Assembly (NCBI GenBank): GCA_049965555.1
Contig: JBMFWF010000003.1
Coordinates: 1-63,453, forward strand
Reading direction: 5' to 3'
From: Candidatus Parvarchaeum sp.
Lineage (GTDB): Archaea; Nanobdellota; Nanobdellia; Parvarchaeales; Parvarchaeaceae
Length of the DNA: 63,453 nucleotides
The first letter of the stretch is position 1, and every line of letters starts with the position of its first letter. Both the position numbers and the translations under genes were made by a program. Below, piece after piece: positions 4,960 through 61,116 of the stretch. The notes beneath the pieces were generated by a model. It did not search any database. It was not told where the DNA came from and saw nothing but the letters and a program-made list of their open reading frames with translations.

Positions 4960-5478
4960 TTATACTTTGTCTTTGCACCAAGCATCAAACATGTCTTCCC
5001 ACTCTTTAATATTTTCTTCTTGAATTTTTGCAAATTTTAGTATATCCTTTATCCAATCCCCTTTACGTATATAACCTATTTCAAATTTGTACTCTAGATT
5101 TTTAATAAGATAATAATCTCCGATAGCCTTCGAAAAAACCTCAGGGATTAAACCTTTATCAATTAAATTCAAGTCTGGCTTAGTTCTTTCAAGCATTTCT
5201 TCATTTACATGAGTTTTTTTAGTAAAGTATAAGACTGGTTCATATTTTTTACCATTACTAACAGATACAAGCACGTAATAATCGATTAACATGGCTTTTG
5301 AATTTGAGTAAACTCCCATTTTATTAATTTTTATGTCGCCGGAATTGGCACTTAATATGTATTCTGAAAAAGAACTAGGACTCGCACCTTCTCCCAGAAA
5401 CTTCGTATCTCCTCTATTTATTTCCATTATGCCCTCAAGTAATTCATTCAAACTGTTTTTCTTTGTATCTTTAATCAT
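4960..5478 (-). CDS. Hypothetical protein (N-terminal LNELL motif)
   Basis: 172-aa ORF with a TATA-like box about 30 nt upstream; no recognised family. Confidence 0.7.
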   Translation of the reverse strand: MIKDTKKNSLNELLEGIMEINRGDTKFLGEGASPSSFSEYILSANSGDIKINKMGVYSNSKAMLIDYYVLVSVSNGKKYEPVLYFTKKTHVNEEMLERTKPDLNLIDKGLIPEVFSKAIGDYYLIKNLEYKFEIGYIRKGDWIKDILKFAKIQEENIKEWEDMFDAWCKDKV

Positions 5479-5551
5479 GTTTATATAAGGAGATTAATCA
5501 ATATTTAAAGATTAACGATGCTTGTTTTAATGTCAAGCAGTAATGAATTTT

Positions 5552-5592
5552 AAAAGGCTGCTGCATAAATCGCTTTACAACAGCCTTTTTTT
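5552..5592 (+). terminator. Hairpin followed by a T run
   Basis: AAAAGGCTG...CAGCCTTTT inverted repeat followed by further T residues. Confidence 0.4.
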
Positions 5593-5687
5593 ATTAAAAA
5601 CTATACATTTTATCAAAGACGGAGTCGGTATGGAAAATCTGAAAAAGAAAGTAAAAACCTTAAATTTACCATATTTTTAGTTAATTA

Positions 5688-6128
5688 ATGATAGAAAAAT
5701 TGGAAAGTATTTTATATCAAAAGAAATTCAGAGGAATTGCAGAAAAGGACATTGAACTTGAGGGGGTAAAAGAACTTTATGGTAAACCAGTAGCTTTCCT
5801 TGGAGTCAGCCCTTTCTTTATGAGCTAGGGATTCTTCCATAAAAGAACTTACTTAGTACTGCCGCATTTTAAGGAGAAATTCAAATTGAAAGAAAAGGAA
5901 TATTTAGAAGATACCTTGATTATAAAGATAGAGGGAAAAGAGGAAAAGAAAATAGAGCCTATGGATTACATGTATGACAACGGCAATGGTTCTTATGACT
6001 TCCCGCCTTTCATTACTGTAAAAACCTTCAAAGGTGATTTGCATTTATGCTCTTCGCGATTTGAGAACAGCGAGTATTTGGAAATAAAGAAAAATACAAA
6101 AAAAGTGAAGGCAGTTTTTGAAAACTAG
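5688..6128 (+). pseudogene. Hypothetical gene interrupted by one in-frame TAG (5826-5828)
   Basis: ATG 5688 is in frame with ORF 5886-6128: MIEKLESILYQK...FFMS*GFFHKRTYLVLP...; TATA-like CTTAAAT 29 nt upstream of 5688. Confidence 0.7.
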
Positions 6129-6174
6129 GTTGCATATTTATAAGCAAAAAAACATAATAGATAGTATTATTTCC

Positions 6175-6249
6175 GGGCTCGTAGCTCAACTAGGTCAGAG
6201 CATTCGGCTTTTAACCGAGTGGTTGCGGGTTCAAATCCCGTCGAGCCCA
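6175..6249 (+). tRNA. tRNA-Lys(TTT)
   Basis: GGGCTCG/CGAGCCC acceptor, TTCGG-CT-TTT-AA-CCGAG, TTCAAAT T loop; CCA not encoded. Confidence 0.95.
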
Positions 6250-6421
6250 TTTTAATACTCTTATAACAACAGGGCAGTGGCAGAAGCGATTCCTGCAATA
6301 ACATCTGTTTTAAGCTTTTCAGCCATAAGTCATAATGCAGTTCATTGACCTGCGCTTTTTAGAGCATAAATAAAGAATTAAAGTTATAAGAACATAAAAT
6401 TAATTATATTATAATACTGCG

Positions 6422-7945
6422 ATGGAAACAGAAGGAACTGAGATAGTAGAAAATTATCAGGTAGTATCTGATGGTATATCTGCGGATGTTAAGATATTGA
6501 GAATACCCTCAAAGTTTACAATGAGCTACAAGATAACCACTCCAGTAATAGACCAAAGCATGAATGCAGTTCTTACTGAAATAAGGACACAGCTTATAAG
6601 GGAGGACCCGTCAAAGATACAGCAGCTTTCGCAGACTACTTCTGAAGCATTAAAAAGGGAGTTCCTCGAGATAGTCCAGAAAAAACTTCAGGAGATAATA
6701 CCCGGAATGCAGGAGAAATCTTACCTGGAACTGTCTGCTACTCTCTTGCATGAGATGTTCGGCCTTGGAATAATAGAAATACTTGATATGGACCCGAACC
6801 TTGAAGAAATAGTTATAAACGATTCAAAAACGCAGGTCATGGTTTACCACATTAAATACGGCTGGCTGGAAACAAATGTAAGGATAGAAACCGAATCTAA
6901 GATAGAGTCTTACGCACAGCAGATTGCAAGAAAGGTGGGAAGGCAGATTACAAACTTAAACCCATTGCTAGATGCACAGCTGCCAAACGGGGACAGGGTA
7001 AATGCTACTTTGTATCCTATATCCACGCACGGAAATACACTAGACATAAGGAAGTTCCGCGCAGAGCCATGGACAATAATAGATTTCCTCAAGAGAAAAA
7101 CGGTTTCACTAGAGCTGATTTCATTTGTATGGCAGGCAATGCAGTATGAGCTTTCTTTTCTTGTAACAGGAGGTACAGCAGCAGGTAAAACTTCAATGCT
7201 TAACGTTTTTCTTCCTTTTATTCCTCCGAACCAGAGGATAATAACAATAGAAGATACGAGCGAGCTTGTCCTTCCAAAATACATGCACTGGGTCCCTATG
7301 CTTACTAGGCAGCCTAACTCTGAAGGAAAGGGACAGGTAACAATGCTTGATCTTTTGCTTAACTCGCTTAGGATGAGGCCTGACCGTTTGGTAGTAGGTG
7401 AGATAAGAAAGAAGGAAGACGCACAGACTCTTTTCGAAGCGATGATGACTGGTCACTCAGTTTATGCAACTATGCACGCAGAGACCGCACAGCAGGTTGT
7501 AAAAAGGTTAATATCGGAACCGATAGATCTGCCGGAAATTGAAGTTTCAACGCTTGATCTTATAATAACTTCATTCAGGCAGAGAAGAACAGGCGTAAGA
7601 AGGGTATTAGAGCTCGCTGAGATAGTTGAACGACAGGTAAGCGGACAGATGGAGCTTAAGACCAACAACCTGTTTGAATGGAAGCCGAGAAATGACTCCA
7701 TAGAAAGGACAATAAATACTTCACAGAAGATCTCAACTAAGCTAGCGCTTTACTCAGGATTGACAAGCGAGGAGATGGCCGCGGATCTCAAGGAAAAAGA
7801 AGTAGTTTTGCAGTGGATGATTGAAAAAGGAATAAACAATGTAAATGTGATAGGTTTGGCAGCAAGCAATTACTACACAAACCATGACAAGTTAATGCAG
7901 TTAGTAAACGACAAAGGAGATCCTTCGGAATTGGAAACTCTGTGA
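6422..7945 (+). CDS. Type II/IV secretion, archaeal pilus assembly ATPase (TadA/FlaI-like)
   Basis: Walker A GGTAAGKT, Asp box TIEDT.EL, LRMRPDRLVVGE, His box TGH..YATMHA. Confidence 0.93.
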   Translation: METEGTEIVENYQVVSDGISADVKILRIPSKFTMSYKITTPVIDQSMNAVLTEIRTQLIREDPSKIQQLSQTTSEALKREFLEIVQKKLQEIIPGMQEKSYLELSATLLHEMFGLGIIEILDMDPNLEEIVINDSKTQVMVYHIKYGWLETNVRIETESKIESYAQQIARKVGRQITNLNPLLDAQLPNGDRVNATLYPISTHGNTLDIRKFRAEPWTIIDFLKRKTVSLELISFVWQAMQYELSFLVTGGTAAGKTSMLNVFLPFIPPNQRIITIEDTSELVLPKYMHWVPMLTRQPNSEGKGQVTMLDLLLNSLRMRPDRLVVGEIRKKEDAQTLFEAMMTGHSVYATMHAETAQQVVKRLISEPIDLPEIEVSTLDLIITSFRQRRTGVRRVLELAEIVERQVSGQMELKTNNLFEWKPRNDSIERTINTSQKISTKLALYSGLTSEEMAADLKEKEVVLQWMIEKGINNVNVIGLAASNYYTNHDKLMQLVNDKGDPSELETL

Positions 7946-7946
7946 G

Positions 7947-8843
7947 ATGGAAACGAAAATACCCGCTGTGATGATTTCCCCTGAAAAGGCCATTTTTTTC
8001 GGCAAGAAGGTAAAAAAATTTGCTCCGATGTTCAAAGGAATGTCTCCAACATTAAGGCAGGACCTTTTGCAGGCCTCGATGGACATAGACTACCTTGACT
8101 ATATAGCGGCAGGGATAATAGTCACCTTGGTTTTAGTAGGGTTGATGTTAGGTGTATCGGCGCTCATTCTTCTTATAGCCATAAAAAAAGACCTTCTTAC
8201 TATAAAGATAGAAGCAATACTGCCGATTCTAATTTTAGTAGTGCCTGGAATCTACTTCCTGTATTTCCTAAACTATCCAAAACTTCAGGCAGTAAAAAGG
8301 ACAAAACTTATAGAAGAGCAGGTTGTATTTGCAACTAGAGAGATAATGATAAAAGTAGGCTCCGGAGTACCTGTCTTCAATGCCCTACTAGATGTTGCAA
8401 ATGGAGATTACGGTGTTGTATCAGATGAATTCAAGCTTGCAATAGAAGAAATTGAATCAGGAGTTCCACAGGAAGAAGCTTTAGACCACCTAGCAAGAAG
8501 AGTTCCCTCCCAGTCTCTTAGAAGAACTATAGATATAATGTTGAATGCAATAAAATCGGGAAGTGATGTTGCAGGCACACTTACTCTTATAAATGACATG
8601 CTGATTAAAAAACAGCAGTCTGACATGAAGTCATATGCTGGTGAACTGACCCCCATGTCAATGGCTTATATGCTTATCTCAGTCGTGCTGCCAAGTTTGG
8701 GTATGTCTGTATTTGTAATTCTTGGTTCGTTAGCTCATTTTAACACAGTAGACATAATGTATATAATACCGCCTTTTCTTTTGATGTTCCAGATATTCTT
8801 CATGGGGATGGTAGGTAATAGGAGGCCTTCGATAGGAGTATGA
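7947..8843 (+). CDS. TadC/FlaJ-like pilus platform membrane protein (T2SS F family)
   Basis: TM pair, YGVVSDEF...E..SG...EEAL..LA.R, C-terminal TMs; follows the ATPase. Confidence 0.88.
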   Translation: METKIPAVMISPEKAIFFGKKVKKFAPMFKGMSPTLRQDLLQASMDIDYLDYIAAGIIVTLVLVGLMLGVSALILLIAIKKDLLTIKIEAILPILILVVPGIYFLYFLNYPKLQAVKRTKLIEEQVVFATREIMIKVGSGVPVFNALLDVANGDYGVVSDEFKLAIEEIESGVPQEEALDHLARRVPSQSLRRTIDIMLNAIKSGSDVAGTLTLINDMLIKKQQSDMKSYAGELTPMSMAYMLISVVLPSLGMSVFVILGSLAHFNTVDIMYIIPPFLLMFQIFFMGMVGNRRPSIGV

Positions 8844-9886
8844 AACAAAATTCAAATCATAAGGATATAAGAGCAAGCCTGGCCAATATGCTCCCGAAAA
8901 AGCTTACTGTATCATTAAAAGAGGAATTTATATATGCACAGATGGGTGGGGAAGACTTGGACCAGACAATAGGATCCGTTGTAATTCTTCTCATTGCAGG
9001 AGCAATTATAGGTGCTGTGCTTGTATTTCATTTTTTGCACTCCCCTCTTTACGCAATAGGAGCAGTATTTGGAATATTCTTTGGAGGGATCATTCTTGTC
9101 AGGTCCGTGCTTTCAATGCTTGCAGATTCCATTGCAGGTAAAATAGAGAAGGTTCTTCCTGATATGCTTCTATTGATGGCTGCAAACTTAAGGGCAGGTA
9201 TGATACCTGAAAATTCATTTATAGCATCCATGAAACCTGAATTTGGAAAGCTGAATTATCTCTTAAATAAAGCGGCAATAGAAACACAGGCAGGCAAAAA
9301 TTTCTCAGAAGCGTTGCTGGAGATGAATGACATGACAAACTCCGAATTCTTTAAGGACAGCGTAAGGATAATATCAGAAGGGATAAGGTCCGGAGCGGAA
9401 TTACACTTAATATTAGAGAACCTTGCCAGTAATCTTTTGCAGAATGAAAGCATAAGAAATGACATGAAGGCACAGGTAAAAAGCTATTCTCTTTTCATAT
9501 TCATAGCAGCTACTCTTGCCGCGCCGCTGCTCTATGGGGTATCCTCTTTCCTTATAGGAATACTTGACCAAGTAGGCGCAACAACAAACTCAGGAAATGC
9601 TGCTGCTAACCTTCCAAGTGGCACACTTGGGTTATTTTCAGGTTTTAGCCTCCCACATATTTCAGTGACTTTAGTTATAGCCATCGCTACAATAAACGTA
9701 ATTATAACAACTGCTTCAAGTGCTCTTTTAGGTGGTGTTTTAAACACAGGAAAAGCAAAAAACGGCCTTAAAAACATACCTGTATATGTATTGATAGGTT
9801 TAGGTATATTTTTCATGGTCAGAATAGGCGTATCGACATTATTTGCAAGCTCATCACTTACATCAGGAGTATCAAGTGGATTTTAA
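8840..9886 (+). CDS. Second TadB/TadC-like platform membrane protein
   Basis: IEKVLPD.L.LMA.NLRAG, EFG.L, SGAEL..IL; ATGA overlap with the preceding gene. Confidence 0.88.
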   Translation: MKQNSNHKDIRASLANMLPKKLTVSLKEEFIYAQMGGEDLDQTIGSVVILLIAGAIIGAVLVFHFLHSPLYAIGAVFGIFFGGIILVRSVLSMLADSIAGKIEKVLPDMLLLMAANLRAGMIPENSFIASMKPEFGKLNYLLNKAAIETQAGKNFSEALLEMNDMTNSEFFKDSVRIISEGIRSGAELHLILENLASNLLQNESIRNDMKAQVKSYSLFIFIAATLAAPLLYGVSSFLIGILDQVGATTNSGNAAANLPSGTLGLFSGFSLPHISVTLVIAIATINVIITTASSALLGGVLNTGKAKNGLKNIPVYVLIGLGIFFMVRIGVSTLFASSSLTSGVSSGF

Positions 9887-10029: not shown

Positions 10030-10040
10030 GATAAATTAAA

Positions 10041-11210
10041 TTAAGGTATTACCCATTTGATATTATTTGATACTCCGTTACGCCCATTGCCACTATAGTC
10101 TAGTGTATTACCGTCCAATGGCCACCAAGCAATCAAATCTAGATTTTGTAAAGGCAAACTATTCCGTCCATTTAAAAATAATTTAGACACATTATTTGCC
10201 GTTATGGCCAAATTATAAAGCTGAACGTTTGATATAGAACCATTAAAATAAGAGATGGGTGGTAAATCGGGCCAATTTGCTCCATTTGAACTTCCAGCTC
10301 CAACAACAAAATAATAAGGAGAAAATGTACACACACTATCACTAATTTTATTTATTTCACTGCCATTTAAATATAAAACTTCAGTCTTGCCTGCAGCCGT
10401 TACATTCTGTGTTAAAACTGCAAACGTCCAAGCATTATTTGAAACTATTTTATTAGTCTGAAAAATAGGGCCGCAGTCTGTTCCCCCAAATAAAGAGTTA
10501 TTACTTCCCACGTAAAGAATATTCCACCAACCTCCAACGTAATTCGGCATAGGCCCTGACCCCAACCATATCATTGCGCCGTAACTTGATGTTTTAAACC
10601 ATAATGCTACAGAAAAATTTTCTGTATTATTTAAAATGGAATTTTCTGGCGTACTCATATAACTGTTAACTCCATTAAAACTGGCAACTAAATTAGATGA
10701 AGATGCTCCCGTTATTGTACCTGTTGTATTAGTAATTACATTACCCGCAGGAGTTGAATAACTATATTGAAGATTGGCAGACAGAGAATATTTTGTATTT
10801 GCAGATGTACATGTAATGGTAGGTATTATTATTGTTGCTGTTGTGCCAGGGTAAATCTTTATAGGTGTTAGATTGTACTCTTTTGTTAAAGCTGTTGTGC
10901 CGGTATTTGATGTTATATAAATTTTAGAGATTGTTGCCGAAGTTGCCGTGTTTGGCAAGCCCCCTCCTATTAATGTGACTAACAACCCTGATGGATTACA
11001 TATCACTGAAGAAACTGCAAAGGGTGAGAAACCGCTGCTTGTAAAAGTTACGCTTGAGCTTGGGTTGAAGATTCCCATGCTATATAATATAACTGCTACA
11101 ATTACTATAATCAGAATAGCCCAGCCGTAGGTCATCATGTACTCTAGAGCTGACTGAGATCTCTTGCTTTTTGTTAAAAGAGTCAAGTGCTTATTTGTGT
11201 GTGTGAACAT
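10041..11210 (-). CDS. Class III signal peptide (pilin-like) protein with C-terminal LamG/ConA-like domain; true start may be the out-of-frame ATG at 11271
   Basis: KRSQ/SALEYMMTYGW plus hydrophobic helix; LamG hallmarks FNGVNSY, FSVALWFK, LYLNG, FNGSISNVQLYN, WWPLDGN..DYSGNG. Confidence 0.88.
   Translation of the reverse strand: MFTHTNKHLTLLTKSKRSQSALEYMMTYGWAILIIVIVAVILYSMGIFNPSSSVTFTSSGFSPFAVSSVICNPSGLLVTLIGGGLPNTATSATISKIYITSNTGTTALTKEYNLTPIKIYPGTTATIIIPTITCTSANTKYSLSANLQYSYSTPAGNVITNTTGTITGASSSNLVASFNGVNSYMSTPENSILNNTENFSVALWFKTSSYGAMIWLGSGPMPNYVGGWWNILYVGSNNSLFGGTDCGPIFQTNKIVSNNAWTFAVLTQNVTAAGKTEVLYLNGSEINKISDSVCTFSPYYFVVGAGSSNGANWPDLPPISYFNGSISNVQLYNLAITANNVSKLFLNGRNSLPLQNLDLIAWWPLDGNTLDYSGNGRNGVSNNIKWVIP
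11062..11173. repeat. Dispersed repeat copy 1 (pilin N-terminal cassette)
   Basis: 104/112 nt identical to 31108-31219 by manual alignment; 60/61 over 11113-11173. Confidence 0.9.
11196..11205 (-). repeat. (CA)5 dinucleotide tract at the frameshift junction
   Basis: TGTGTGTGTG on the + strand; (CA)6 or (CA)3 would join ATG 11271 in frame to the adhesin. Confidence 0.75.
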
Positions 11211-11313: not shown

Positions 11314-11862
11314 TCAATAGTAACTAAGCTTTTTATTCTTGTCTATGTATATAAATTTCAATCCCATTTTTCTAGCTTTTTCAAATGTGGCAGCTGCCTT
11401 TTCACTATTTTCATAGCCTAATATTATTATATTTTTTATGTCTTCCTCCTTTATGTCTTCATACATTTTTTCATGCTCGTATGCCTTTTCCTTTAAATAG
11501 ACTTTAGGGACTTTGCCCCTCAATTCAAGGTATATCTTAAGCCAGCCAGTCCAATGATCCGGCTTTCCGTCTTCATAACTGCCCAGCAACCTATTCTGCC
11601 TGTGTGCCTCTTCGTGTATAAGCAGGTTCTCAATGTCATCAAATTTGCTAGAGCACATAGAATCGTAAAGAAACCACTTATCAATTAGTATTTTATCGTT
11701 ATGCCGGTCATATTTACCTAAAAACATGCCGTTGGAATTTGCTATATAATATTTAGTTTTGTCAAATGCCGAAGGATAAGGCGAATTCTCTTTAAGCTTT
11801 GAAAGTAAACATTCCAGAACACTCCTCTGCTTTCTTATATCAATGAACTCCTCGTTTATCAT
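11314..11862 (-). CDS. SprT-like zinc metalloprotease (zincin)
   Basis: LIHEEAHRQ...PDHWTGW (HExxH plus downstream His). Confidence 0.65.
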   Translation of the reverse strand: MINEEFIDIRKQRSVLECLLSKLKENSPYPSAFDKTKYYIANSNGMFLGKYDRHNDKILIDKWFLYDSMCSSKFDDIENLLIHEEAHRQNRLLGSYEDGKPDHWTGWLKIYLELRGKVPKVYLKEKAYEHEKMYEDIKEEDIKNIIILGYENSEKAAATFEKARKMGLKFIYIDKNKKLSYY

Positions 11863-15092: not shown

Positions 15093-15458
15093 CTACTCAT
15101 TTGGATCATTTTTCTCTTCGTTCTCTTGATCATTTTCTTCGCTGTTTTCTTGGTTTATAGTTTCAGTGTCATTGTATGAAGGTTCTTCATGGATTTCTTC
15201 ATCACTGCCTTTAATCCCAGCATCTTCAGTTGCAAAGATTGTGAATTTCCTCTTTACCTTCGAGCTACCTGTTCTTTTTACGTATTTAGGCATGCCTTTG
15301 TAAAGCCTTTGTCCGTGTATTTTCTTTGCGCAGTCCGGACAATAATATGCCTTTATCCCGTCTCTAAATAGATAAACGGCTCTGTCCCTTCTAGTTATTT
15401 GGCCGCATGAAGCGCATCTAACGTTTCCTGTTCTTCCCCTTCTTATGTTCTTTCCCAT
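15093..15458 (-). CDS. rps26e: Ribosomal protein eS26-like with acidic tail
   Basis: RRGRTGNVRCASCG...RDRAV...YYCPDCAK matches the eS26 zinc-finger layout; own TATA-like box at 15481-15490 inside cydB. Confidence 0.7.
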   Translation of the reverse strand: MGKNIRRGRTGNVRCASCGQITRRDRAVYLFRDGIKAYYCPDCAKKIHGQRLYKGMPKYVKRTGSSKVKRKFTIFATEDAGIKGSDEEIHEEPSYNDTETINQENSEENDQENEEKNDPNE

Positions 15459-16455
15459 TCACTTTATTATTATTGGAGATTATATATAAGTTTGCTATAC
15501 CTATTTTTTCATTCTCATCGCTATCTTCCTGATAGTTATCGCTGCTATTTTCTTTTTCTGGAAGCTTGTACATGTAAAGGAAAAAGAGAAGCATTGCTGT
15601 AAGCAATATCCCGCCGACTATTGTGACAAGTATGCCGGCAGAGGCAACCGCTGAATTATTCAAGTAAGAAGCCAAAGACTGTGTTCCAAAAACTTTTCCA
15701 TAATTAAGAAAATTTATTGATATGACGGAAAGAAATGCAGCTATAAAAACAATCTCTCTTCTTGCCTTTCCAGTTATGTAATAAAATAATGAAACTGCTG
15801 CTATCGCAGCAGCAAGTACATAAGTTATGTAGTTTACATTTAGGTTAAGCCTGCTGATTGAAAATATGAAAACAAAAAGGCCGAGAACTGTAGATATTGG
15901 TGACAAAACCTTTGCCTTTTCGATCTTGTAAAAAACAAATGATAAACCAAATGCTATAAGAAGCGTACCGACTATGAAGCCAAGAACATATGGATTGGAT
16001 AGGAATACTGAGGTTGAAAACCCGGTCAGCGTTGAATTAGTTCCAACACCGGATATTATTGATATGAAAATTGAAAGAAGTATGATGATTATTATGAATG
16101 TTATCAATGAATAAACCCTTGCAAGCATAAGCTGGCTGAACTTAGAGTCTTTCCAGATGTACTCGGAAAAAACGAGAAAAACGTTTCTCCCTATGAACAA
16201 TAAAGTTGCTAAAAGTATTGGGAAAACATACATGTAATCAATTGCAGGCATTATTGAAGGGTAGAGCACTTCGGTATTTACAACAAAGAAAACGACGAAA
16301 GTTCCGACTATGCCCCACACAGGATCAAGGTATTTCTTTACTTTCGGCAAGCTTTTTCTGTCGTATATAAAGGATATAGCGGACATCCCTTCAACAAAAA
16401 GAAATGTGAACACAATAGCAAGCAGAACGTAATTTATTGTTATGTATGTGTTCAT
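15418..16455 (-). CDS. cydB: Cytochrome bd ubiquinol oxidase subunit II
   Basis: YLDPVW, R.VF.VF, multiple TMs; directly after cydA. Confidence 0.8.
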   Translation of the reverse strand: MNTYITINYVLLAIVFTFLFVEGMSAISFIYDRKSLPKVKKYLDPVWGIVGTFVVFFVVNTEVLYPSIMPAIDYMYVFPILLATLLFIGRNVFLVFSEYIWKDSKFSQLMLARVYSLITFIIIIILLSIFISIISGVGTNSTLTGFSTSVFLSNPYVLGFIVGTLLIAFGLSFVFYKIEKAKVLSPISTVLGLFVFIFSISRLNLNVNYITYVLAAAIAAVSLFYYITGKARREIVFIAAFLSVISINFLNYGKVFGTQSLASYLNNSAVASAGILVTIVGGILLTAMLLFFLYMYKLPEKENSSDNYQEDSDENEKIGIANLYIISNNNKVNGKEHKKGKNRKR

Positions 16456-21202: not shown

Positions 21203-21916
21203 GTGGAATACAAAAAGGATTTAAAAAATTTTAAAGACTTAGATGACTTGCTGGGAGAGGATTACATATATGGAAATTACGATTTAAGCAAAGCCATACT
21301 AGAAAAAACCGCTAGTCTGCTAGTTAAAAACTCCGTAACAATACTGAATAAACCATTCAAATATGTATATTTAGTGCACAATGAAAAGCTAGAAAAGAAG
21401 ATTCAAGGCATAAATAAATTTATTGATAATCTAAAAGCTGATTCATTGGGGTACCTGTGCTTATTGATCGGCAGGGATTTTTACATGCTTAATTCAAACA
21501 ATTATGACATGTCTGTGGTTACCAAGGAGCTAAAAAACGAGGGATTGATTTACTTTTGGGACCACAAAGAATTAAATGACAAAGAAATAGATTTCATCGA
21601 GAACATAAAGGAAGATAAAGAATTAAAGAAAGAAAGATTAAATCGCGTATTAGAATTAAATAAGATGGCAGATTCTGATTACCTTGCGTATCAGATAAAG
21701 AAAAGATCCGAGGCCTTTTTAAACGAAGAAGAACTGTCAAATGTATACAAGAAATTCAGTGAGAAGCCCTTATTTATAATGGATAAAAAAGAGATATACT
21801 CAATTGAATACAAAGACAATGTGGCCCAGTTATCAAAGCACAATGCCAATGACGACAAATACAGTTTAATGATTGGAATGATAAACAGCAAATACAACGA
21901 CAACATGTATGAGTAA
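21203..21916 (+). CDS. Hypothetical protein (N-terminal LDDLL, C-terminal MYE)
   Basis: GTG 21203 preferred because TTTAAATA lies 30 nt upstream. Confidence 0.7.
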   Translation: MEYKKDLKNFKDLDDLLGEDYIYGNYDLSKAILEKTASLLVKNSVTILNKPFKYVYLVHNEKLEKKIQGINKFIDNLKADSLGYLCLLIGRDFYMLNSNNYDMSVVTKELKNEGLIYFWDHKELNDKEIDFIENIKEDKELKKERLNRVLELNKMADSDYLAYQIKKRSEAFLNEEELSNVYKKFSEKPLFIMDKKEIYSIEYKDNVAQLSKHNANDDKYSLMIGMINSKYNDNMYE

Positions 21917-41396: not shown

Positions 41397-41966
41397 CTAT
41401 TCATCAGTATAATGATTTTTAAGCTTGAGCTGCAGCTCTTCCTGAGAGATATTCTTTAATATTAGCTCGCCTAGCTTTACTTCCTTTTCACTAATTCTAG
41501 AATAATCATAGAATTTGCCTAAGCGTTTATCAAAATAAAAACCCGCGCCCGAAAAGAAAGTTATCCTTTCGCTTGAAATGTAAAATTTATTAATCTCATT
41601 TCTTGCAGTCAAAAAGTAATCTATCGAACCATTGTACTTGTTTTCCACCGCACAATTGCCATTTTCTTTTATTACGCCCTCCAAGTATGATTCTAGCATC
41701 CCACTTTTCTTCGACTCCGCTAGCTTCTTCAAATCAGATACTAATATATCCTTCCCTACAAGTGTTCTAAGCAGGAAAAGCGAATTTATGTAATCTTTTC
41801 TGTAAATCTTTTCAAAGTCCGGTAACATCCCACATGTTTCAAAAGACAGAGAATCTGTAGACACTTGTTCAGCGGGTGTCTTTACTAGGCTATCCAATTT
41901 CTTCGCCTTTTCCTTTATTGCAAAAACCAAAGGACTAACCTTCTCATCGTAAGTTACCGCAACCAT
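41397..41966 (-). CDS. Hypothetical protein (LDSLV motif)
   Basis: 189-aa ORF; TTTATATA about 30 nt upstream. Confidence 0.72.
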   Translation of the reverse strand: MVAVTYDEKVSPLVFAIKEKAKKLDSLVKTPAEQVSTDSLSFETCGMLPDFEKIYRKDYINSLFLLRTLVGKDILVSDLKKLAESKKSGMLESYLEGVIKENGNCAVENKYNGSIDYFLTARNEINKFYISSERITFFSGAGFYFDKRLGKFYDYSRISEKEVKLGELILKNISQEELQLKLKNHYTDE

Positions 41967-44801: not shown

Positions 44802-45818
44802 ATGAAGATATTGTTTATAGGAAGGTTTCAGCCCTTTCACAAAGGCCACCTTAATACAATACTTTCAATCTGTAAAAGAGAAGATAAAATAAAAATAGTT
44901 ATTGGTAGCAAGCAGTTTTCTTTTACTAAAGAAAATCCCTTTACATTTGAAGAAAGGAAAGAGATGATTGAACTTTCGCTTAAAGATGAGAATTTTAAAA
45001 ATTTCGAAATATTCGGTGTAGAAGATAAAGAATCACATAGCAAGTGGTTTAAAGAACTTGTAAACACTGTTGGTTACTTTGATGTGTGCTACACTGGAAA
45101 TAATCTTGTTGAAAAAATACTTTTAGGGAACAAAATTAGAGTAGAAAAAATAAAGGAATTCAAGCGTGATAAATACTCCGGGACAAAGATAAGAAAGAGA
45201 ATTTTATCGGACAAAACAGTAGATAATTTAATACCAAACGGGACTTTAAAAGTTATAAACAAAATAAACGGAACAGAGAGAATAAAGAGCATTAACATAA
45301 ATAGTATTAAAAGGATATTCACTGTAGGACATTCTACTAGAGATATAAAAGATTTTGTATCATTGATGAAGGAATATGGAATTAAGGAGGTTGTAGACAT
45401 AAGAACAATAGCAAGGTCTAGACATAATCCACAGTTTAACTCTTATGACTTAAAGACAATCTTATTTGAAAATGGAATTAGATATAAACACTTTAAAGAA
45501 TTAGGAGGCCTCAGAAAAGCTGATAAAGATTCAATTAATACATTTTGGGAAAACGACTCTTTCAGAGGTTTTGCTGATTACATGAAAAAGAAGGAATTCA
45601 AAGAAGGGATAGATAAGCTAATTAAACTAGCACTTAAAAAAAGAGTCACGATAATGTGTGCTGAGATATTGCCATGGAATTGCCATCGCTCACTTATAGC
45701 GGATTTACTTACTGCAAAACACTTTTCAGTGACACATATAATAAACCACAATCAAACATTAGAACATAAATTAAACAAGCATGCAATAAAATACCGGGGC
45801 AGCCTTATCTATAGATAA
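44802..45818 (+). CDS. nadM: NMN adenylyltransferase (NadM) fused to DUF488
   Basis: GRFQPFHKGH, NPFT..ER..MI, SGT.IR; then IFTVGHS, VDIR...SR.NPQF, LGG.R, MCAE..PW.CHRSLIAD. Confidence 0.88.
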   Translation: MKILFIGRFQPFHKGHLNTILSICKREDKIKIVIGSKQFSFTKENPFTFEERKEMIELSLKDENFKNFEIFGVEDKESHSKWFKELVNTVGYFDVCYTGNNLVEKILLGNKIRVEKIKEFKRDKYSGTKIRKRILSDKTVDNLIPNGTLKVINKINGTERIKSININSIKRIFTVGHSTRDIKDFVSLMKEYGIKEVVDIRTIARSRHNPQFNSYDLKTILFENGIRYKHFKELGGLRKADKDSINTFWENDSFRGFADYMKKKEFKEGIDKLIKLALKKRVTIMCAEILPWNCHRSLIADLLTAKHFSVTHIINHNQTLEHKLNKHAIKYRGSLIYR

Positions 45819-54230: not shown

Positions 54231-55475
54231 TTAATTTGATATGAGTAGAATAGAATTATCTTCGCCCTCATTTTTAAGATACTCTGCAGCTGCTGCTTGC
54301 ACGTCTTCCTCTTTAAGATTCATCACATCTTTATAAATTTCATTTGGATCTTTTCCGTATTCCAATGCGGAGTCTAATATATAACTAGAATGATCTAAAG
54401 TAGAATCAAATGTGTCGGCAAGGCTTGCTTTTAAGCTTATTTTAGATCTATTCGCATTTTTGTCAATAACATCTCCATTTATCATTTTTTCTATTTCATT
54501 GAACATTATCTTTTTGACTTTTTCTAAATCTTTGTTTTTTACCTCTGCATATGTAACTAGATAACCGGTATGCCTACCTATGCTTATATCTGAGTCCGAG
54601 AGATATACTAAGCCAGCTTTATCTCGCATACTCTCCATAAGCCTGCTCGACAAGATATCCCTTATATAATTGAGCGCTGCCACTCCTTCTTCTGATTTTT
54701 TATAAAGCTCGCCCGCGCCAGGAAGTTTCATACCGAATATTATAGAAGACTGGCCCGAATAAGGCCTAAAGCTTTTCATATGTACGCTTCTGTATTCTGT
54801 TTTGCCTAGGTATACCTCTAAATTAGGTTGGATATTTTCCTTTTTAATATTTCCAAAAGAATTGTTTATACTTTCCATTACTCTTTTCCTATTAAAATTG
54901 CCTGCTACAGATATAATAGCATTCCCAGGGCAGTAGTATTTTGAGTAGATATCGATTAAGGTATCCTTAGATAACTCTTCAACTTTAAAAGGATCTCCAC
55001 CTAAAAATGTTGTTACTGGCTTCCTAAATAGGTATGCCCTTGTAATTGCTCCCTCTAGTACAAGATCCTCCCCATAATTAGCATGCACTTCGTTTGTTAG
55101 TGCATTTTTCTCCTTTTCCAGATTCTCTTCAGGAAAAACAGAATCAAAAATCATCTCTGAAACAGTATCAAATACATACTGTGATTTAAATAGGTTTAAA
55201 AATTTAAATTTATAAACGGTTTTCTCCGCAGAGGTTTCTCCATTCCAGTATAAGGTATTATTGTCCAAAAAATCTCTTAATGTCTTTTTACTAAATTTAG
55301 CAGCGCCCTCAAAGAGCATATGTTCTATAAGGTGAGATATTCCTGTGACTTCGTTACTTTCGTTAAAAAGACCATATTTAAACCCAACTGAAATCGAAGC
55401 ACTATGAAGATTATTATTAGGGCTCAGTATTACTTCTAAACCGTTATCAAGCCTTCGCTTGTAATAAGGCATCAT
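54231..55475 (-). CDS. M16 family zinc peptidase
   Basis: LDNGL.V, GISHLIEHMLF.G inverted zinc motif, YY.P.N....V.G, R...GLVY. Confidence 0.88.
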   Translation of the reverse strand: MMPYYKRRLDNGLEVILSPNNNLHSASISVGFKYGLFNESNEVTGISHLIEHMLFEGAAKFSKKTLRDFLDNNTLYWNGETSAEKTVYKFKFLNLFKSQYVFDTVSEMIFDSVFPEENLEKEKNALTNEVHANYGEDLVLEGAITRAYLFRKPVTTFLGGDPFKVEELSKDTLIDIYSKYYCPGNAIISVAGNFNRKRVMESINNSFGNIKKENIQPNLEVYLGKTEYRSVHMKSFRPYSGQSSIIFGMKLPGAGELYKKSEEGVAALNYIRDILSSRLMESMRDKAGLVYLSDSDISIGRHTGYLVTYAEVKNKDLEKVKKIMFNEIEKMINGDVIDKNANRSKISLKASLADTFDSTLDHSSYILDSALEYGKDPNEIYKDVMNLKEEDVQAAAAEYLKNEGEDNSILLISN

Positions 55476-55545: not shown

Positions 55546-56184
55546 TTATTTACGCCGCTTTCCTTTCTGATAACCCATTAAATATGCAAGTAGACCACCA
55601 CTTATTGCAAGAAAAATATCTGTGGCCCCTACAAGCTCTGCCGCATAAATACTGGGCGTCCTCAATCCTTCTTTTATTAAGGGTATAAAGCCTAGAATAT
55701 CTAAGGACAAAAGTGCTGCATAAGGACCGAGTCTTACTTTTTGCACAAACCCCTCATTTTCAAGGCCCTTCAATGCTACTTTGTATAAATACCTTTTTTG
55801 GCGTTCTTTGGAGTAATCCAGTGATTTTATTGGGAGATTGCTGTTATAACCTCTGCGTTCAAGTTCTCTTTCCAACATTTTAAGTGAAGCCTGTGATAGC
55901 ACTAGTTTATACCTCTCTTCATCTCCACCACACCTCTTATATTTGTTCATTTCTTTTGTAACTGAATATAAATAAGAAGAAAAAGCGTGTTTGAAAAATT
56001 CAGTATTTTCTTTATAAACAGTAGCGAGTTTCTCAAACCTAGATTGTCCTATCATTAATTCAAAATCTGACACTGCATTAAGAACCTTGTTTTCAAGATC
56101 GCTATTTTTTGAACCATTAAAATTAGAATCGATTATCAGCTTTGACAACGATGACCTGAAATAACTGGCACCATTGTTATCCAT
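55546..56184 (-). CDS. Hypothetical protein with C-terminal hydrophobic hairpin (LSKLI motif)
   Basis: 212-aa ORF with two hydrophobic segments near the C-terminus. Confidence 0.7.
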   Translation of the reverse strand: MDNNGASYFRSSLSKLIIDSNFNGSKNSDLENKVLNAVSDFELMIGQSRFEKLATVYKENTEFFKHAFSSYLYSVTKEMNKYKRCGGDEERYKLVLSQASLKMLERELERRGYNSNLPIKSLDYSKERQKRYLYKVALKGLENEGFVQKVRLGPYAALLSLDILGFIPLIKEGLRTPSIYAAELVGATDIFLAISGGLLAYLMGYQKGKRRK

Positions 56185-56246
56185 CTTATTCTATAGGATT
56201 TAATGTTTAAATAAGTAATTTAAGCATTAATTCTTCTTGCTGGGTT

Positions 56247-56900: not shown

Positions 56901-56920
56901 TTAAAACACCTCCTGACATT

Positions 56921-57487: not shown

Positions 57488-57547
57488 GTTAAAATAAAAT
57501 AGCCGTTATATATAAACTTTTGAAAATAAATTAAATATTATAATTTA

Positions 57548-58336: not shown

Positions 58337-58386
58337 CCTAAGTACAATATTTAAAAGCATATAAATTTTGCTAATTTATTTAGTAT

Positions 58387-59421
58387 ATGGAAATAAAACT
58401 AGAGTATGACGATGAAAGGGGCATATACCTATTAAACAAAATCCGTGTGCTGGTCTTACCAAAAGGCAGCCTTGAATCGCTGCAAAACTCCGTTAATATA
58501 ATACTTGGGCTTGCGACTAAAAGCATATTCCAAGAGGTTTCATCTACTGTTTTTTACTCTTTTTTGCAGGATTTAATAAAAAGAAAGTCAATAAAAATTA
58601 GAGGAGAAGAAAAAACAGAAATAGAGATATTTGACCTCTTCAAAGAAATGGGTTTTGGAAGAATAAATAAGGTATCCAGTGATTTAAATGTTTACAAAAT
58701 AAGTATAGACGGCAGCGCAAATTCATTTCTGAATCTGATATCGAATTCCCCTTACTGCTTTAACAGCATAGGCATGCTAACGGGGATTTATAGAATAATC
58801 ACAAATAGAGATGTAGAGGTCACTGAGGAAAAATGCAGAAGTACTGGCGATTCGGACATTGATTATTTTAATATAGACGTAAAAGATTCAAAGAGCGAAT
58901 ATTCATACATCCCTTCTCAAATATTCGATGAAAAAAATGAAAACTTAAGGACGGTAGAAATAACCAAGGATGAAACGGATATTTTTATAAATTCAATCCC
59001 TTCTGAGATAGTGCCTGTTGTTTACTTTCCTTATCTTTTCAGTAAATTAAGAAAGATAATTGGGCAGGGAGTATATGGAGTAGAGAATCAAGCGGGTAAA
59101 GAGCTTGTAAAGCTGTACCAGCAGTATAATCTTCAAGTTATAAAAGATAAATACGGTTTAAATGATCTAAGTATAATATCTGTTCTAAGCGGATTCGGAA
59201 AGATAAAAACATTGAAAAATAATTTAGGGTATTTTTTAGAAGTAGATGTGTACAATTCATTTAATGCGCTGCATGTTGATGATGCAATAGAAAAGAGATG
59301 CTTTCTTTTGGGAAGCGTGCTTTCTGGCCTTTCATACAAAATAACCGGGACAATGCTAAAATTAAACGAAAAAGAGTGCTCAGCTATTAATAATGAAGTC
59401 TGTAAATTTTCGTTTGAGTGA
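58387..59421 (+). CDS. Tandem V4R-domain protein
   Basis: Two units of GFG.I...C...G.L.G...E..C. Confidence 0.75.
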   Translation: MEIKLEYDDERGIYLLNKIRVLVLPKGSLESLQNSVNIILGLATKSIFQEVSSTVFYSFLQDLIKRKSIKIRGEEKTEIEIFDLFKEMGFGRINKVSSDLNVYKISIDGSANSFLNLISNSPYCFNSIGMLTGIYRIITNRDVEVTEEKCRSTGDSDIDYFNIDVKDSKSEYSYIPSQIFDEKNENLRTVEITKDETDIFINSIPSEIVPVVYFPYLFSKLRKIIGQGVYGVENQAGKELVKLYQQYNLQVIKDKYGLNDLSIISVLSGFGKIKTLKNNLGYFLEVDVYNSFNALHVDDAIEKRCFLLGSVLSGLSYKITGTMLKLNEKECSAINNEVCKFSFE

Positions 59422-59458
59422 GTATAATTATTAATATTAATTAAGCAATCATAATCTT

Positions 59459-59530
59459 GGAGCTATCGCCCAACAGGAGGGCACACGACTGAAGCTCGTG
59501 ACGGTGAGGGTGCAAATCCCTCTAGCTCCA
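59459..59530 (+). tRNA. tRNA-Phe(GAA), non-canonical T loop TGCAAAT
   Basis: GGAGCTA/TAGCTCC acceptor, CACGA-CT-GAA-GC-TCGTG, GAGGG/CCCTC T stem. Confidence 0.88.
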
Positions 59531-59560
59531 TTTTATCGATAAAACCAGGTTTTTCTAAAT

Positions 59561-60334
59561 TTACTGTTCTTTGCATTTTATGCTTTTAACAACCCTGTTA
59601 AAAGCAGTTTCAACAGCGGATATTGAACTATTTTGTGAAGCCAGGGCGAAGACCATACATACTGTTTTACCTGTTATAGATATAGCTACTTTAACGTATT
59701 TGAAAGATAAGTTTTGGATCTGCGGTATCTTTATATTTCTGTCGGTTATTGCAACCCCCTGCTTTCCTGACATGTTGATATAAGAATAATTTAAAGTGTT
59801 TATTTTAAATGAGCTTAAAAACCCACCTACCTGATTTATATTGGTTGAATTTGAAAAATTGCTTGGCACTTTGAAATTTGATACCAAAACCAAATTGACA
59901 TTTTTTACTAATTTTGTTATGGTTGCAAGGCTTAAGTTCTTTGATATAGCGCCTGAGATTACGCTTGGGATATCTGATATTATGTTAGATATATATGAAT
60001 TCGGGATTATTATGGCAATAGAAGAATTCGTAATTTCATTTGATATGCCTTTAGAAAAACTATTATTCTGCGACAGTATTGGCACGCCATTAACAACAGA
60101 AGGAGAAAAAATTAACCAATTGCCTGGATAAGAAAAGTTGGCGCCATTTGAGACAAAAGTATTATTAACGCTTGAACTTTTAAAGAAAGATGTTATTGAC
60201 TGACCAATAAGGCCAGCTACCTCTGGGGCGTTTATATTTATTATATATGTAGATATAAGAGAGAAAACAATTATCGCAATTATGATATAAAAGATTATTT
60301 TTATAACGCCCATGTGATTATAAATAAAAACCAA
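59561..60334 (-). CDS. Membrane-anchored PsbP/DcrB-like protein (tentative)
   Basis: N-terminal TM, FSYPGNW, MSGK.G, FN.VVKSIK. Confidence 0.55.
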   Translation of the reverse strand: MVFIYNHMGVIKIIFYIIIAIIVFSLISTYIININAPEVAGLIGQSITSFFKSSSVNNTFVSNGANFSYPGNWLIFSPSVVNGVPILSQNNSFSKGISNEITNSSIAIIIPNSYISNIISDIPSVISGAISKNLSLATITKLVKNVNLVLVSNFKVPSNFSNSTNINQVGGFLSSFKINTLNYSYINMSGKQGVAITDRNIKIPQIQNLSFKYVKVAISITGKTVCMVFALASQNSSISAVETAFNRVVKSIKCKEQ

Positions 60335-60378
60335 AATATAAACCTTATTAAGCTTAGTAAAAGCGCTTATCCAAAAAT

Positions 60379-61116
60379 TTAGACTATTTTTGAGTATATT
60401 ACACCTTTATTATCTTTGAAATTCAAATCAAACTCTAAGCGATAAATTAAACCTCCTGAAATTAATTTGATGCTTTTATCTTTCTGCATTATCTTTAATT
60501 CCTTTTTTTTATTTATGTAATAATCCTCTATATTTTTTATCATCTCTTTATTCTCAGTATAAGAGTTACTTGCCTTATTTATAAAAAGTATATCATCAAG
60601 TTTAATGCTTCCATTTTTTAGCCCATCTTTTAATAAATTATAAGTAACATGGTAAGAAGACCCCTGGTCCTTTATATAAACATCAGATATTTTCCCATTG
60701 AACAGGTTCAAAATATAAAAGAATAGCTCATCGTGATAGTCTTTCTCAGGTATTATCCCTTCATACCTTAAATCTAAGAAATTTGCTTGCCTATGTGCTT
60801 CTTCATGCTTAATTATGCTGTCTTTTATGAACGTAGAATCTACTTTATCAGTGTATTTAACGGTAACAAAGTCCTCTTTATCATGTTGTTCATCTACAGG
60901 TTCAAATATATTAATTGTTAGATTTTTATTCAAGCTCCTAAAAACATCCTTCTTGATTATCACCTTATCTCTTTTTACGCTGTACTCGGCCATCCCGTCT
61001 GAATATTTTAGTTCGCGTATCTCATATTTAGATGGAGAAAATGCGTTGTTATACTTAAAATTCGTCTCATTTGAAACCTCTGAAAGAAGTTTTTCTAATA
61101 TTTTTCTATTATTCAT
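60379..61116 (-). CDS. SprT-like zinc metalloprotease, paralogue of 11314-11862
   Basis: IKHEEAHRQ...DYHDELF. Confidence 0.62.
   Translation of the reverse strand: MNNRKILEKLLSEVSNETNFKYNNAFSPSKYEIRELKYSDGMAEYSVKRDKVIIKKDVFRSLNKNLTINIFEPVDEQHDKEDFVTVKYTDKVDSTFIKDSIIKHEEAHRQANFLDLRYEGIIPEKDYHDELFFYILNLFNGKISDVYIKDQGSSYHVTYNLLKDGLKNGSIKLDDILFINKASNSYTENKEMIKNIEDYYINKKKELKIMQKDKSIKLISGGLIYRLEFDLNFKDNKGVIYSKIV

Follow-up and report, generated by a model that had tools for sequence, protein, structure and literature searches.

A short N-terminal motif common to unrelated accessory proteins in one genus of Nanoarchaeota: a candidate targeting or docking peptide

Introduction

The capsid targeting sequence of phage T4 and the N-terminal motifs recognised by ClpX are about ten residues long, lie at the extreme N-terminus of unrelated proteins and are read by a single partner. 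PEXEL (RxLxE/Q/D) and RxLR are genus-level short host-targeting motifs of eukaryotic parasites, located after a classical signal peptide and functioning in the secretory pathway. The encapsulation peptides of bacterial microcompartment (BMC) cargo (PduP, PduD, EutC, CcmN) are described as a short terminal amphipathic helix with a poorly conserved polar linker, common to unrelated enzymes, and were recognised from an extension that only the homologues in compartment-bearing organisms have (PMC4594438, PMC12339742); a length of 15–20 residues is given for the helix (PMC4594438).

Here we describe a short motif, L-[EDNS]-x-[LI]-[LIV], carried near the N-terminus by dozens of accessory proteins, unrelated to one another, from a single genus of Nanoarchaeota. 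It was noticed in a stretch of 63,453 nucleotides, hereafter the window. The initial annotation interpreted it as a sorting tag for effectors delivered to the host of a DPANN archaeon; the cell is indeed a DPANN archaeon, and that interpretation as a whole is partly supported.

Results

Genes of the whole 0.78-Mb genome G000 (92% complete) were predicted with an in-house gene caller. The motif occurs in residues 1–40 of 85 of the 752 proteins, against 193 of 4612 internal 40-residue windows (4.2%; Fisher p = 2e-13), and 500 shuffles of residues 2–40 gave a mean of 36.2 motif-bearing N-termini (sd 5.5, maximum 55), which confirms the suspected excess. Motif starts peak at residues 3–11, the excess being weaker (about twofold) at L16, L24 and L32. 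Starts at residues 2–12 number 40, compared with 11.7 ± 3.4 (maximum 24) after permuting alignment columns among proteins, and with a motif of only five residues about 12 of these 40 matches are expected by chance. Among the 392 genes whose start agrees with co-linear orthologues, 32 (8.2%) have the motif against 4.3% of internal windows (p = 0.002), and in 18 it starts at residues 2–12, against 5.2 ± 2.1. At C-termini there is no such excess (32 of 744 windows). When 5285 reduced-alphabet patterns were scanned without bias, L-[ED]-x-h-h came first among the non-hydrophobic ones (55/752 N-termini against 169/8415 internal windows). Each of the six Leu codons and of the two Glu codons is used in the motif, which shows no conservation at the DNA level; selection on it is at the level of protein, not DNA.

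Of the 75 genes in the window that encode 60 aa or more, 13 show the motif within residues 1–40, where about three would be expected at the internal rate. All eleven carriers named in the initial annotation contain it at the residue assigned there (Table 1), and the GTG start of 21203 is supported by the orthologue in G012, a genome of the same genus. The carrier placed at 27853 keeps its motif, with a start more likely at the ATG at 27859, so that the leucine becomes residue 7. The 46-residue reading frame at 5688 also keeps it, and is the 5' piece of a longer, interrupted gene, the intact G012 orthologue of which has 151 aa and the N-terminus MAERLESII. That housekeeping N-termini mostly lack the motif holds statistically; DedA had been recognised as an exception, and matches in 44802 and 54231 had been overlooked. 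The latter two are probably chance matches, and that of DedA is probably a chance or structural match outside the carrier set.

Table 1. Motif matches in the window, with carriers first and the three housekeeping matches last.
Feature	Coordinates	Strand	Motif	Residues	Motif (nt)	Remarks
Orphan protein, 172 aa	4960..5478	-	LNELL	10-14	5437-5451	No Pfam family
Gene of ~147 aa	5688..6128	+	LESIL	5-9	5700-5714	In-frame stop at codon 47
Orphan protein with HEEAH, 182 aa	11314..11862	-	LECLL	16-20	11803-11817	
Orphan protein	21203..21916	+	LDDLL	13-17	21239-21253	GTG start; C-terminus NMYE
Orphan protein, 273 aa	21909..22730	+	LDEII	6-10	21924-21938	
Orphan protein, 328 aa	25941..26927	+	LEDIV	32-36	26034-26048	K/N/Q-rich leader before motif; weaker-enrichment zone
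Orphan protein, 270 aa	27859..28671	+	LEKLI	7-11	27877-27891	
Nucleoside 2-deoxyribosyltransferase-like (NDT-like) enzyme, 158 aa	40758..41234	-	LDGII	7-11	41202-41216	
Orphan protein, 189 aa	41397..41966	-	LDSLV	24-28	41883-41897	Weaker-enrichment zone
Orphan protein, 212 aa	55546..56184	-	LSKLI	13-17	56134-56148	
Orphan protein with HEEAH, 245 aa	60379..61116	-	LEKLL	7-11	61084-61098	
VTT/DedA membrane protein	3379..3999	-	LDQIL	5-9		
Cytidylyltransferase-DUF488 protein	44802..45818	+	LNTIL	17-21		Within enzyme domain
M16 peptidase	54231..55475	-	LEVIL	13-17		Within Pfam domain

The motif is retained in the families of several of these proteins. L-[DEN]-x-[LIVF]-L is kept in nine of nine genus orthologues of 4960, LE[KR]LISEGSS is invariant across eight sequences of the 27859 family (overall identity 64–84%), and the 21909 family, with an invariant C-terminus PSDMY[QR], retains the motif class down to 42% identity. 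The G012 orthologue of 11314 has LESLL; 11314 is itself a weak paralogue of 60379, the sole homologue of which (50% identity) has LENVL in the same position. Across four families, all 24 orthologues have the same residue at L0, and mean identity is 0.84 at positions 0, +3 and +4, compared with 0.56 ahead of the motif, 0.68 behind it and 0.40 at x. This contrast between motif and flanks is modest and drawn from four families.

The carriers as a set are mutually unrelated (one weak pair among 37), and a Pfam family over the curated cut-off is found in 7 of 30, compared with 26 of 40 neighbours in the window matched for length (p = 0.0007). Four outgroup samples gave no hit for 26/39 carriers, against 330/787 non-carriers (p = 0.003), and carriers evolve fast, with an orthologue identity of 79% versus 92% (p = 3e-5). 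TM-like segments occur in only 5 of the 39 carriers defined by PSSM, against 210 of 826 proteins overall, and the residues that follow the motif are polar. These figures agree with the first description of the motif as common to unrelated proteins that have no hydrophobic signal peptide and mostly no known family. The set includes NDT-like, NDK-like and NAPRT-like proteins, a metallophosphoesterase, two HEEAH proteins, and PrkA and SpoVR of cytoplasmic type.

In the same genus the excess recurs in G012 (49/519 N-termini against 4.5% of internal windows) and in G030 (22/302 against 3.4%), which has a median identity of 53% and a GC content of 41%. The best-scoring carriers of G030 have no homologue in G000, and the PSSM trained on G000 is weakly enriched there (4 N-terminal hits against 0–2 at internal offsets), which indicates that the genus-wide signal is looser than the G000 consensus. 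G013 and G066, each from another family of the class and processed with the same pipeline, have no excess (9/268 against 3.8% and 11/358 against 2.7%, respectively), and in the sister genus G074 the difference is not significant (18/278 against 4.8%, p = 0.23). The enrichment is restricted to one genus of Nanoarchaeota.

This distribution bears on an explanation that does without a common reader, in which the motif would be a convergent structural habit, a short N-terminal capping helix of fast-evolving, lineage-restricted proteins. Such a helix, hydrophobic at i, i+3 and i+4 and acidic in its first turn, would pack on the body of its own protein or aid the folding or stability of young proteins. 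The pattern does resemble a first helical turn; in the 4960 family it extends into a conserved amphipathic helix of greater length, LDELLDAIIKIP, which could simply pack on its own fold, and in several cytoplasmic-type carriers (PrkA, RpoH and LysRS, as well as aconitase and a helicase) it is part of an ancestral domain. The few good matches in G074 could also mean gradual drift. However, the orphan-rich relatives G013 and G066 have no excess at all, and therefore the motif is not general to orphans or to N-terminal helices. The motif is also missing from internal helix starts of the same proteins, and the polar sequence after it has no hydrophobic periodicity. The caveat, raised at the outset, that the motif may be just a generic amphipathic helix is largely answered by the three same-pipeline genomes with no significant excess. 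We consider a capping helix rather unlikely.

The enzymes among the carriers are informative in this respect. In the NDT-like enzyme the motif lies inside a 17-residue N-terminal extension, the PF05014 domain beginning at residue 21, and the extension is present in seven close homologues and absent from seven distant ones. The AF2 model predicts a short helix at residues 7–12 followed by a loop, with pLDDT below 50 for residues 1–11. Two NDK-like proteins of the genus, 32% identical to each other, both have a motif-bearing leader, and an NDK from another family has none. The motif was gained as an N-terminal extension on an enzyme, and its place ahead of the NDT-like domain, seen from the beginning, is that of a lineage-specific add-on. 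As extensions outside the fold, modelled with low confidence, the enzyme cases argue further against a capping helix.

The same exposed, low-confidence arm of the NDT-like model would suit an N-terminal degron through which an unfoldase or protease (LonB, Cdc48-20S) would limit the lifetime of accessory or potentially harmful proteins. ClpX, whose short N-terminal recognition motifs are common to unrelated substrates, provides a precedent, and a weak ParE-like hit and possible hydrolases are found among the carriers. On the other hand, purifying selection keeps the motif on the NDT-like and NDK-like enzymes, where constitutive instability seems costly. Nor is the motif linked to HbYX tails: HbYX/HbFX tails, which the initial annotation had noted on three carriers, occur on 2 of 39 carriers against 41 of 826 proteins overall. 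A degron appears very unlikely.

Every candidate reader that was tested either fails co-occurrence across genomes or is absent, a result that counts against a common reader and favours the capping helix. The initial annotation had put forward the T2SSE ATPase (6422–7945) and CsaA. The former is full-length in G074 (65% identity) and G039 (33%), relatives with no enrichment, and a stand-alone CsaA-like tRNA_bind protein is likewise present in these motif-poor genomes; neither is specific to motif-positive genomes, which speaks against a client signal of either protein.

Known classes of signal were also compared with the carriers. A Sec signal peptide (class I/II) does not fit the polar residues after the motif and the rarity of TM-like windows. 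RR followed by an h-region, as in a Tat signal, occurs in no carrier, and TatC was not found in the motif-positive G030 (100% complete). Against a double-glycine leader, G is minor at +5 to +7 (3, 2 and 6 of 39), and no column shows GG. The ESCRT domains of a MIM-MIT interaction, PF04212 (MIT) and PF03357 (Snf7-type), were not found in G000.

An export signal independent of Sec and Tat, for effectors delivered to a host, would be a special case of a targeting peptide. It would account for carriers that lack hydrophobic signals and, like many host-interaction proteins, are confined to a lineage and evolve fast, and for the nucleotide-acting enzymes and two HEEAH proteins among them; PEXEL and RxLR show that short genus-level host-targeting motifs exist in eukaryotic parasites. 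Nanotubes between DPANN cells and hosts, with unknown components, are described in one report (PMC11329633) and count in its favour. Against host export stand the proposed readers, not specific to motif-positive genomes, the failure to find TatC in G030 and the presence of PrkA and SpoVR. The genus also encodes an A-type ATPase, TCA enzymes, cytochrome bd and DnaK, so that strict host dependence is itself an assumption. Export to the host is not supported by these results, and as an explanation of the motif we hold it to be improbable.

Discussion

Our results are best explained by a lineage-specific N-terminal short linear motif, most likely a terminal targeting or docking peptide, a reading to which we assign a probability of about one half. 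The layout consists of a variable lead-in of 2–10 residues, often K, N or S, then L-[ED>SN]-x-[LI]-[LIV] and a polar stretch, often with [SKG]-[DEN]. The core would span one and a half to two helical turns, and its small hydrophobic face (positions 0, +3 and +4), beside an acidic residue, would be read by a common partner. Such reading would gather the carriers at one place, which may be a scaffold, the cell envelope or the site of host contact. We infer both the existence of the common reader and localisation as the function of the motif. Short, helical and carried at the extreme N-terminus of roughly one protein in twenty, mostly fast-evolving ones of unknown function, the motif has the look of an address or docking tag. 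A bolder proposal, which we think has little chance of being correct, is that the motif is an archaeal sorting signal not described so far and used by one genus of Nanoarchaeota. It would route a changing set of accessory proteins that have no signal peptide to the cell surface or into a partner cell, and its cargo would include nucleotide-salvage enzymes and the HEEAH hydrolase-like orphans.

Compared with BMC encapsulation peptides, the NDT-like extension is similar in being a terminal helix with a linker that occurs in one lineage only, and the NDK-like leader likewise. The helix is shorter here, with about 6–8 residues against the 15–20 described for BMC cargo. Moreover, this organism is an archaeon, the carriers are mostly orphans rather than the enzymes of one pathway, and G000, 92% complete, has no match at E ≤ 0.1 to the BMC shell protein family PF00936 or to encapsulin PF04454, the latter result also speaking against an encapsulin cargo-loading peptide.

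Archaeal class III (type IV pilin-like) signal peptides are a further close comparison. G000 encodes 11 pilin-like proteins with the N-terminal K-S-Q-S-A-L-E-Y-M-M, in which the L-E-x-h-h core likewise follows a basic residue; two variants fit the motif regex. Pilins then continue with a hydrophobic segment of about 20 residues, whereas the carriers are polar after the motif and have neither a conserved Q nor a small-residue cleavage site; a class III (prepilin) signal was rejected for the carriers on the missing segment.

The T4 capsid targeting sequence and the ClpX motifs resemble the present motif as extreme N-terminal peptides on unrelated proteins, with different sequences. The carriers have no sign of viral origin, since they are found on most contigs and lie in conserved synteny, and to our knowledge Clp is not expected in archaea. 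With PEXEL and RxLR the motif shares a genus-level, short, near-N-terminal form on many unrelated, fast-evolving orphans, found by enrichment statistics. It differs from them in that its carriers have no signal peptide. If it were indeed a sorting signal, it would be a prokaryotic counterpart of PEXEL or RxLR.

Results

The motif in the window

The short motif L-[EDNS]-x-[LI]-[LIV], which the initial annotation reported near the start of eleven window ORFs, is present in 11/11 at the residue given for each, and some of the gene models are amended here. The orphan 21203 carries it as listed behind a GTG start codon, a start that is supported because the orthologue in G012, a genome of the same genus, begins MEYSKDLKNFKDLDYLL. 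The motif of 27853 also stands, with the ATG at 27859 as the more likely start. The 46-aa ORF at 5688 has the motif but is not a separate ORF: it is the 5' head of a gene of ~147 aa that is interrupted in frame by a stop at codon 47. The orthologue in G012, intact at 151 aa, has Tyr there, and the interruption reflects either a pseudogene or a sequencing error. The housekeeping matches originally named fell short by two, the genes at 44802 and 54231, in both of which the motif lies within a Pfam domain.

Locations of the features discussed in the text
Feature	Contig or region	Position	Strand
Interrupted gene, 46-aa ORF plus 80-aa ORF	window	5688-6143	+
80-aa ORF of the interrupted gene	window	5886-6128	+
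T2SSE ATPase and two T2SSF genes	window	6422-9886	
Pilin-like protein	window	10041-11210	-
Pilin-like protein	window	29826-31232	-
Orphan with HEEAHRQ (11314)	window	11314-11862	-
Orphan with HEEAHRQ (60379)	window	60379-61116	-
Two adjoining orphans (21203 and 21909)	window	21203-22730	+
TatA and TatC	window	61185-62224	+
PrkA, DUF444-like and SpoVR gene cluster	C4	26268-30745	
Part of the rich gene set	window	15418-17867	
Part of the rich gene set	C1	73977-81873	
Part of the rich gene set	C4	39596-42947	
Part of the rich gene set	C6	11176-14950	

Enrichment at N-termini

The whole genome of this DPANN archaeon (G000; 783,591 bp in 28 contigs, the window being C3:1-63453) was called with a simple home-made codon log-odds caller, which yielded 858 genes and a coding density of 92%; ORFs truncated at the 5' edge of a 20-kb piece were excluded from the comparisons, and proteins below 100 aa (below 60 aa in some counts) from the statistics. 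The N-terminal excess over internal windows and shuffles, controls that the initial annotation called for, was borne out genome-wide: the motif occurs within residues 1-40 of 85/752 proteins of at least 100 aa (11.3%) vs 193/4612 internal 40-residue windows (4.2%; Fisher p = 2e-13), and shuffling residues 2-40 500 times produced 36.2 carriers on average (sd 5.5, maximum 55). Motif starts are concentrated at residues 3-11. When columns were permuted among proteins, which fixes the position-specific composition, 40 starts at residues 2-12 were observed vs 11.7 +/- 3.4 expected (maximum 24), so that chance alone would supply about 12 of these 40 N-terminal matches. Among 5285 reduced-alphabet five-residue patterns scanned without bias, L-[ED]-x-[LIVMF]-[LIVMF] came first of those that are not simply hydrophobic, being found in 55/752 N-termini vs 169/8415 internal windows (3.6-fold excess, p = 5e-14). 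C-terminal windows of G000 proteins showed no enrichment (32/744).

Several trivial causes were rejected. Composition does not account for the excess, given that the observed count is far above whole-window shuffles, local shuffles and column permutations. Mis-called starts are ruled out by the 392 genes whose N-terminus is co-linear with that of the G012 orthologue, in which the motif is found in 32 (8.2%) vs 4.3% of internal windows (p = 0.002), with 18 starts at residues 2-12 vs 5.2 +/- 2.1. A nucleotide-level signal or common 5' cassette was discarded since the codons vary (Leu is encoded by all six of its codons and Glu by both) and conservation is lacking in upstream and coding DNA alike; selection therefore acts on the peptide. 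Upstream of starts, AT-rich TATA-like sequence peaks at -28 to -23 and the Shine-Dalgarno signal is slight, and many mRNAs are therefore probably leaderless; a link of the motif with leaderless promoters was not upheld, the TATA-like box being present at 24/39 carriers, as defined by a motif scoring matrix (PSSM), vs 376/787 other genes (p = 0.10).

All compared genomes were run through the same pipeline, the outgroup genomes being sampled at only 31-66%.

The motif in related genomes (residues 1-40 and internal windows as for G000)
Genome	Relation to G000	Residues 1-40	Internal	p	Starts at 2-12	Remarks
G012	same genus, 91% median identity	49/519 (9.4%)	4.5%	1e-5	27 vs 7.3 +/- 2.7	
G030	same genus, 53% median identity, 41% GC	22/302 (7.3%)	3.4%	0.003	11 vs 3.8 +/- 1.9	broader pattern 19/302 vs 1.9%, p = 3e-5
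G074	sister genus	18/278 (6.5%)	4.8%	0.23		a few good matches
G013	another family of the class	9/268 (3.4%)	3.8%		2 vs 4.4	
G066	another family of the class	11/358 (3.1%)	2.7%		3 vs 4.6	
G039	another family, 24% GC	33/359 (9.2%)	6.5%	0.07		weak excess

The excess in G039 was not retained as a positive, because it includes tandem paralogues and the refined PSSM leaves 2 N-terminal matches vs 1-2 at internal offsets. GC content was also dismissed as the cause, G030 being positive at 41% GC and G013, G066 and G074 negative at 40-42% GC. The comparison thus makes the trait essentially genus-wide and lineage-specific; the excess is not general to proteins, orphans or AT-rich genomes. The top-scoring carriers of G030 have no homologue in G000. 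Taken together, the tag is statistically solid and genus-wide.

Shape, conservation and gain of the tag

Aligned on the leucine, the consensus reads [K/E/S]-[K/S]-L-[E>D>S,N]-[K/x]-[I/L]-[L>I,V]-[S/K/G]-[E/D/N]-x, with Met most often 3-6 residues before the motif and no hydrophobic periodicity downstream. The pattern is that of a helix of one and a half to two turns, its hydrophobic face made up of three residues, with polar sequence after it.

The motif is conserved modestly better than its flanks among orthologues of four families: the leucine is identical in 24/24, and mean identity is 0.84 at positions 0, +3 and +4, vs 0.56 for the residues that precede the motif, 0.68 for those that follow and 0.40 at x. 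The gene of the 4960 family occurs in 9/40 genomes of the taxonomic family, all nine in the genus, and retains L-[DEN]-x-[LIVF]-L in 9/9 at 48-61% overall identity. Eight sequences of the 27853 family share an invariant LE[KR]LISEGSS behind a variable lead-in; AF2 gave no confident model of this family (mean pLDDT 34.7), and the ESM Atlas yielded no result for 27853. The 21909 family retains the motif class down to 42% identity, and the only homologue of 60379, at 50% identity, carries LENVL.

The most telling case of gain is 40758, a nucleoside 2-deoxyribosyltransferase-like enzyme whose Pfam domain starts at residue 21. A 17-residue leader, MVVYKNLDEIISDFKSK, is present in 7/7 close homologues (75-93% identity), and 7/7 distant homologues (43-48% identity) begin directly at the domain, without the leader. 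Its AF2 model (mean pLDDT 63) places a helix at residues 7-12, residues 1-11 lying below 50. Two NDK-like proteins of the genus, mutually 32% identical, both have a motif leader (LSDIL, LENYL), which is missing from an NDK of another family. PrkA was dropped as an add-on case because its L-E-x-[FY]-L element is part of the ancestral N-terminal region.

The carriers

Hidden paralogy is ruled out: all-against-all BLASTP of 37 soluble carriers returned one weak pair only, 11314/60379, both with HEEAH. The HEEAHRQ of these weakly related orphans looks like a zincin site, and neither has a Pfam family match at E <= 0.01. The Pfam curated cut-off was reached by 7/30 scanned carriers (NDT-like, SWIM, SpoVR, PrkA, metallophosphoesterase, DUF5658 and NDK) vs 26/40 non-carrier window genes of 100-350 aa (Fisher p = 0.0007), and in the window alone by 1/10 carriers vs the same 26/40 (p = 0.003). 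Carriers also more often have no tblastn match in four outgroup samples (26/39 PSSM carriers vs 330/787 other proteins, p = 0.003), are less identical to their G012 orthologues (79% vs 92%, p = 3e-5) and rarely have TM-like segments (5/39 vs 210/826).

Two contigs are unusually carrier-rich, C10 of 34.9 kb (10/44 genes) and C18 of 5.4 kb (4/6 genes). Both have almost no orthologues in the sampled 65% of G012, and they may be accessory islands. C10 holds an NDK-like gene, rare in the class (3/61 genomes). PrkA, which clusters with DUF444-like and SpoVR genes, occurs in only 7/101 genomes of the class, 6 of the 7 in the motif genus, and both PrkA and SpoVR have the motif at residue 6.

The adjoining orphans 21203 and 21909 end in M-Y-E and M-Y-Q, possible HbYX-type proteasome-docking tails; in the 21909 family, PSDMY[QR] does not vary in an alignment of four sequences that reaches down to 42% identity. 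Only 16/826 proteins of G000 have Hb-Y-X ends. The motif shows no link to such tails in G000.

Candidate partners

Nothing supports the T2SSE ATPase or CsaA, both put forward as readers of the tag: they fail on co-occurrence, the ATPase and a CsaA-like protein being conserved in genomes without enrichment. TatC, whose gene lies with TatA beside the carrier 60379, fails as a partner on co-occurrence: it was not found in five relatives, the motif-positive G030 of the same genus included. No convincing twin-arginine substrate was found in the G000 genome; the Tat translocase is seldom present in this group and lacks obvious clients. Hsp70 is not a specific partner, as it is present across the family, including the motif-poor G074. 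Encapsulin, BMC, MIT and Snf7 were not found in G000. A crude phylogenetic profile, which required a match in G030 and allowed none in the four outgroups, returned 86 proteins with no obvious reader; the sampling of each outgroup at only 31-66% weakens it.

Discussion

We give a probability of roughly one half to the motif being a terminal targeting or docking peptide. A short terminal helix with a polar link has the anatomy of such a peptide; the tag was acquired by unrelated proteins in one lineage and added onto enzymes, and its hydrophobic face is under purifying selection. A structural habit, in which the motif has no common reader, we consider rather unlikely, and an N-terminal degron very improbable.

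Export to the host would be a special case of targeting, and we judge it improbable. Nanotube-like connections of DPANN archaea to their hosts have been seen, although neither their components nor any cargo signal are known (PMC11329633). With 0.78 Mb, G000 has a rich gene set among DPANN genomes. Judged from the N-termini of the proteins and from two Pfam hits, weak or partial, it appears to comprise cytochrome bd, an A/V-type ATPase operon, the chaperones DnaK, DnaJ and GrpE, aconitase, and genes resembling those of isocitrate dehydrogenase and succinate dehydrogenase. Most of these metabolic, ATPase and chaperone genes have no match in the outgroup samples. Given this gene set, strict host dependence is not to be assumed.

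How DPANN archaea place proteins at or beyond the envelope is an open question on which the tag bears. It yields a list that can be tested, some 30-40 proteins in each genome with eleven in the window, and its peptide is a concrete reagent for use in pull-downs, in N-terminomics and in fusions to reporters. Should the destination prove internal, repeated acquisition by unrelated proteins in one genus would still be a rare instance of short linear motif evolution in prokaryotes, and the tag would account for part of the orphan proteome too. Full-text searches of open-access articles and bioRxiv preprints, supplementary files aside, turned up no account of such a motif.

The tag is none of the Sec, Tat or class III signals. 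G000 has eleven pilin-like proteins of 66 to 1171 aa with class III signal peptides, two in the window and nine more genome-wide, whose genes adjoin those of the T2SSE ATPase and two T2SSF proteins. In 9/11 the N-terminal sequence is the near-identical KSQSALEYMMTYGWAILIIVIV, the other two being more diverged; the C-terminal parts differ, with a Laminin_G_3 domain in one. Their L-E-Y-M-M core resembles that of the tag and is equally far from a basic residue. Of the systems described so far, the encapsulation peptide of bacterial microcompartment (BMC) cargo comes nearest to the tag. The tag does not belong to that system, since neither BMC nor encapsulin shell genes were found in G000. The encapsulation peptide was recognised in a like manner, as an extension found only on homologues from compartment-bearing organisms (PMC4594438; PMC12339742).
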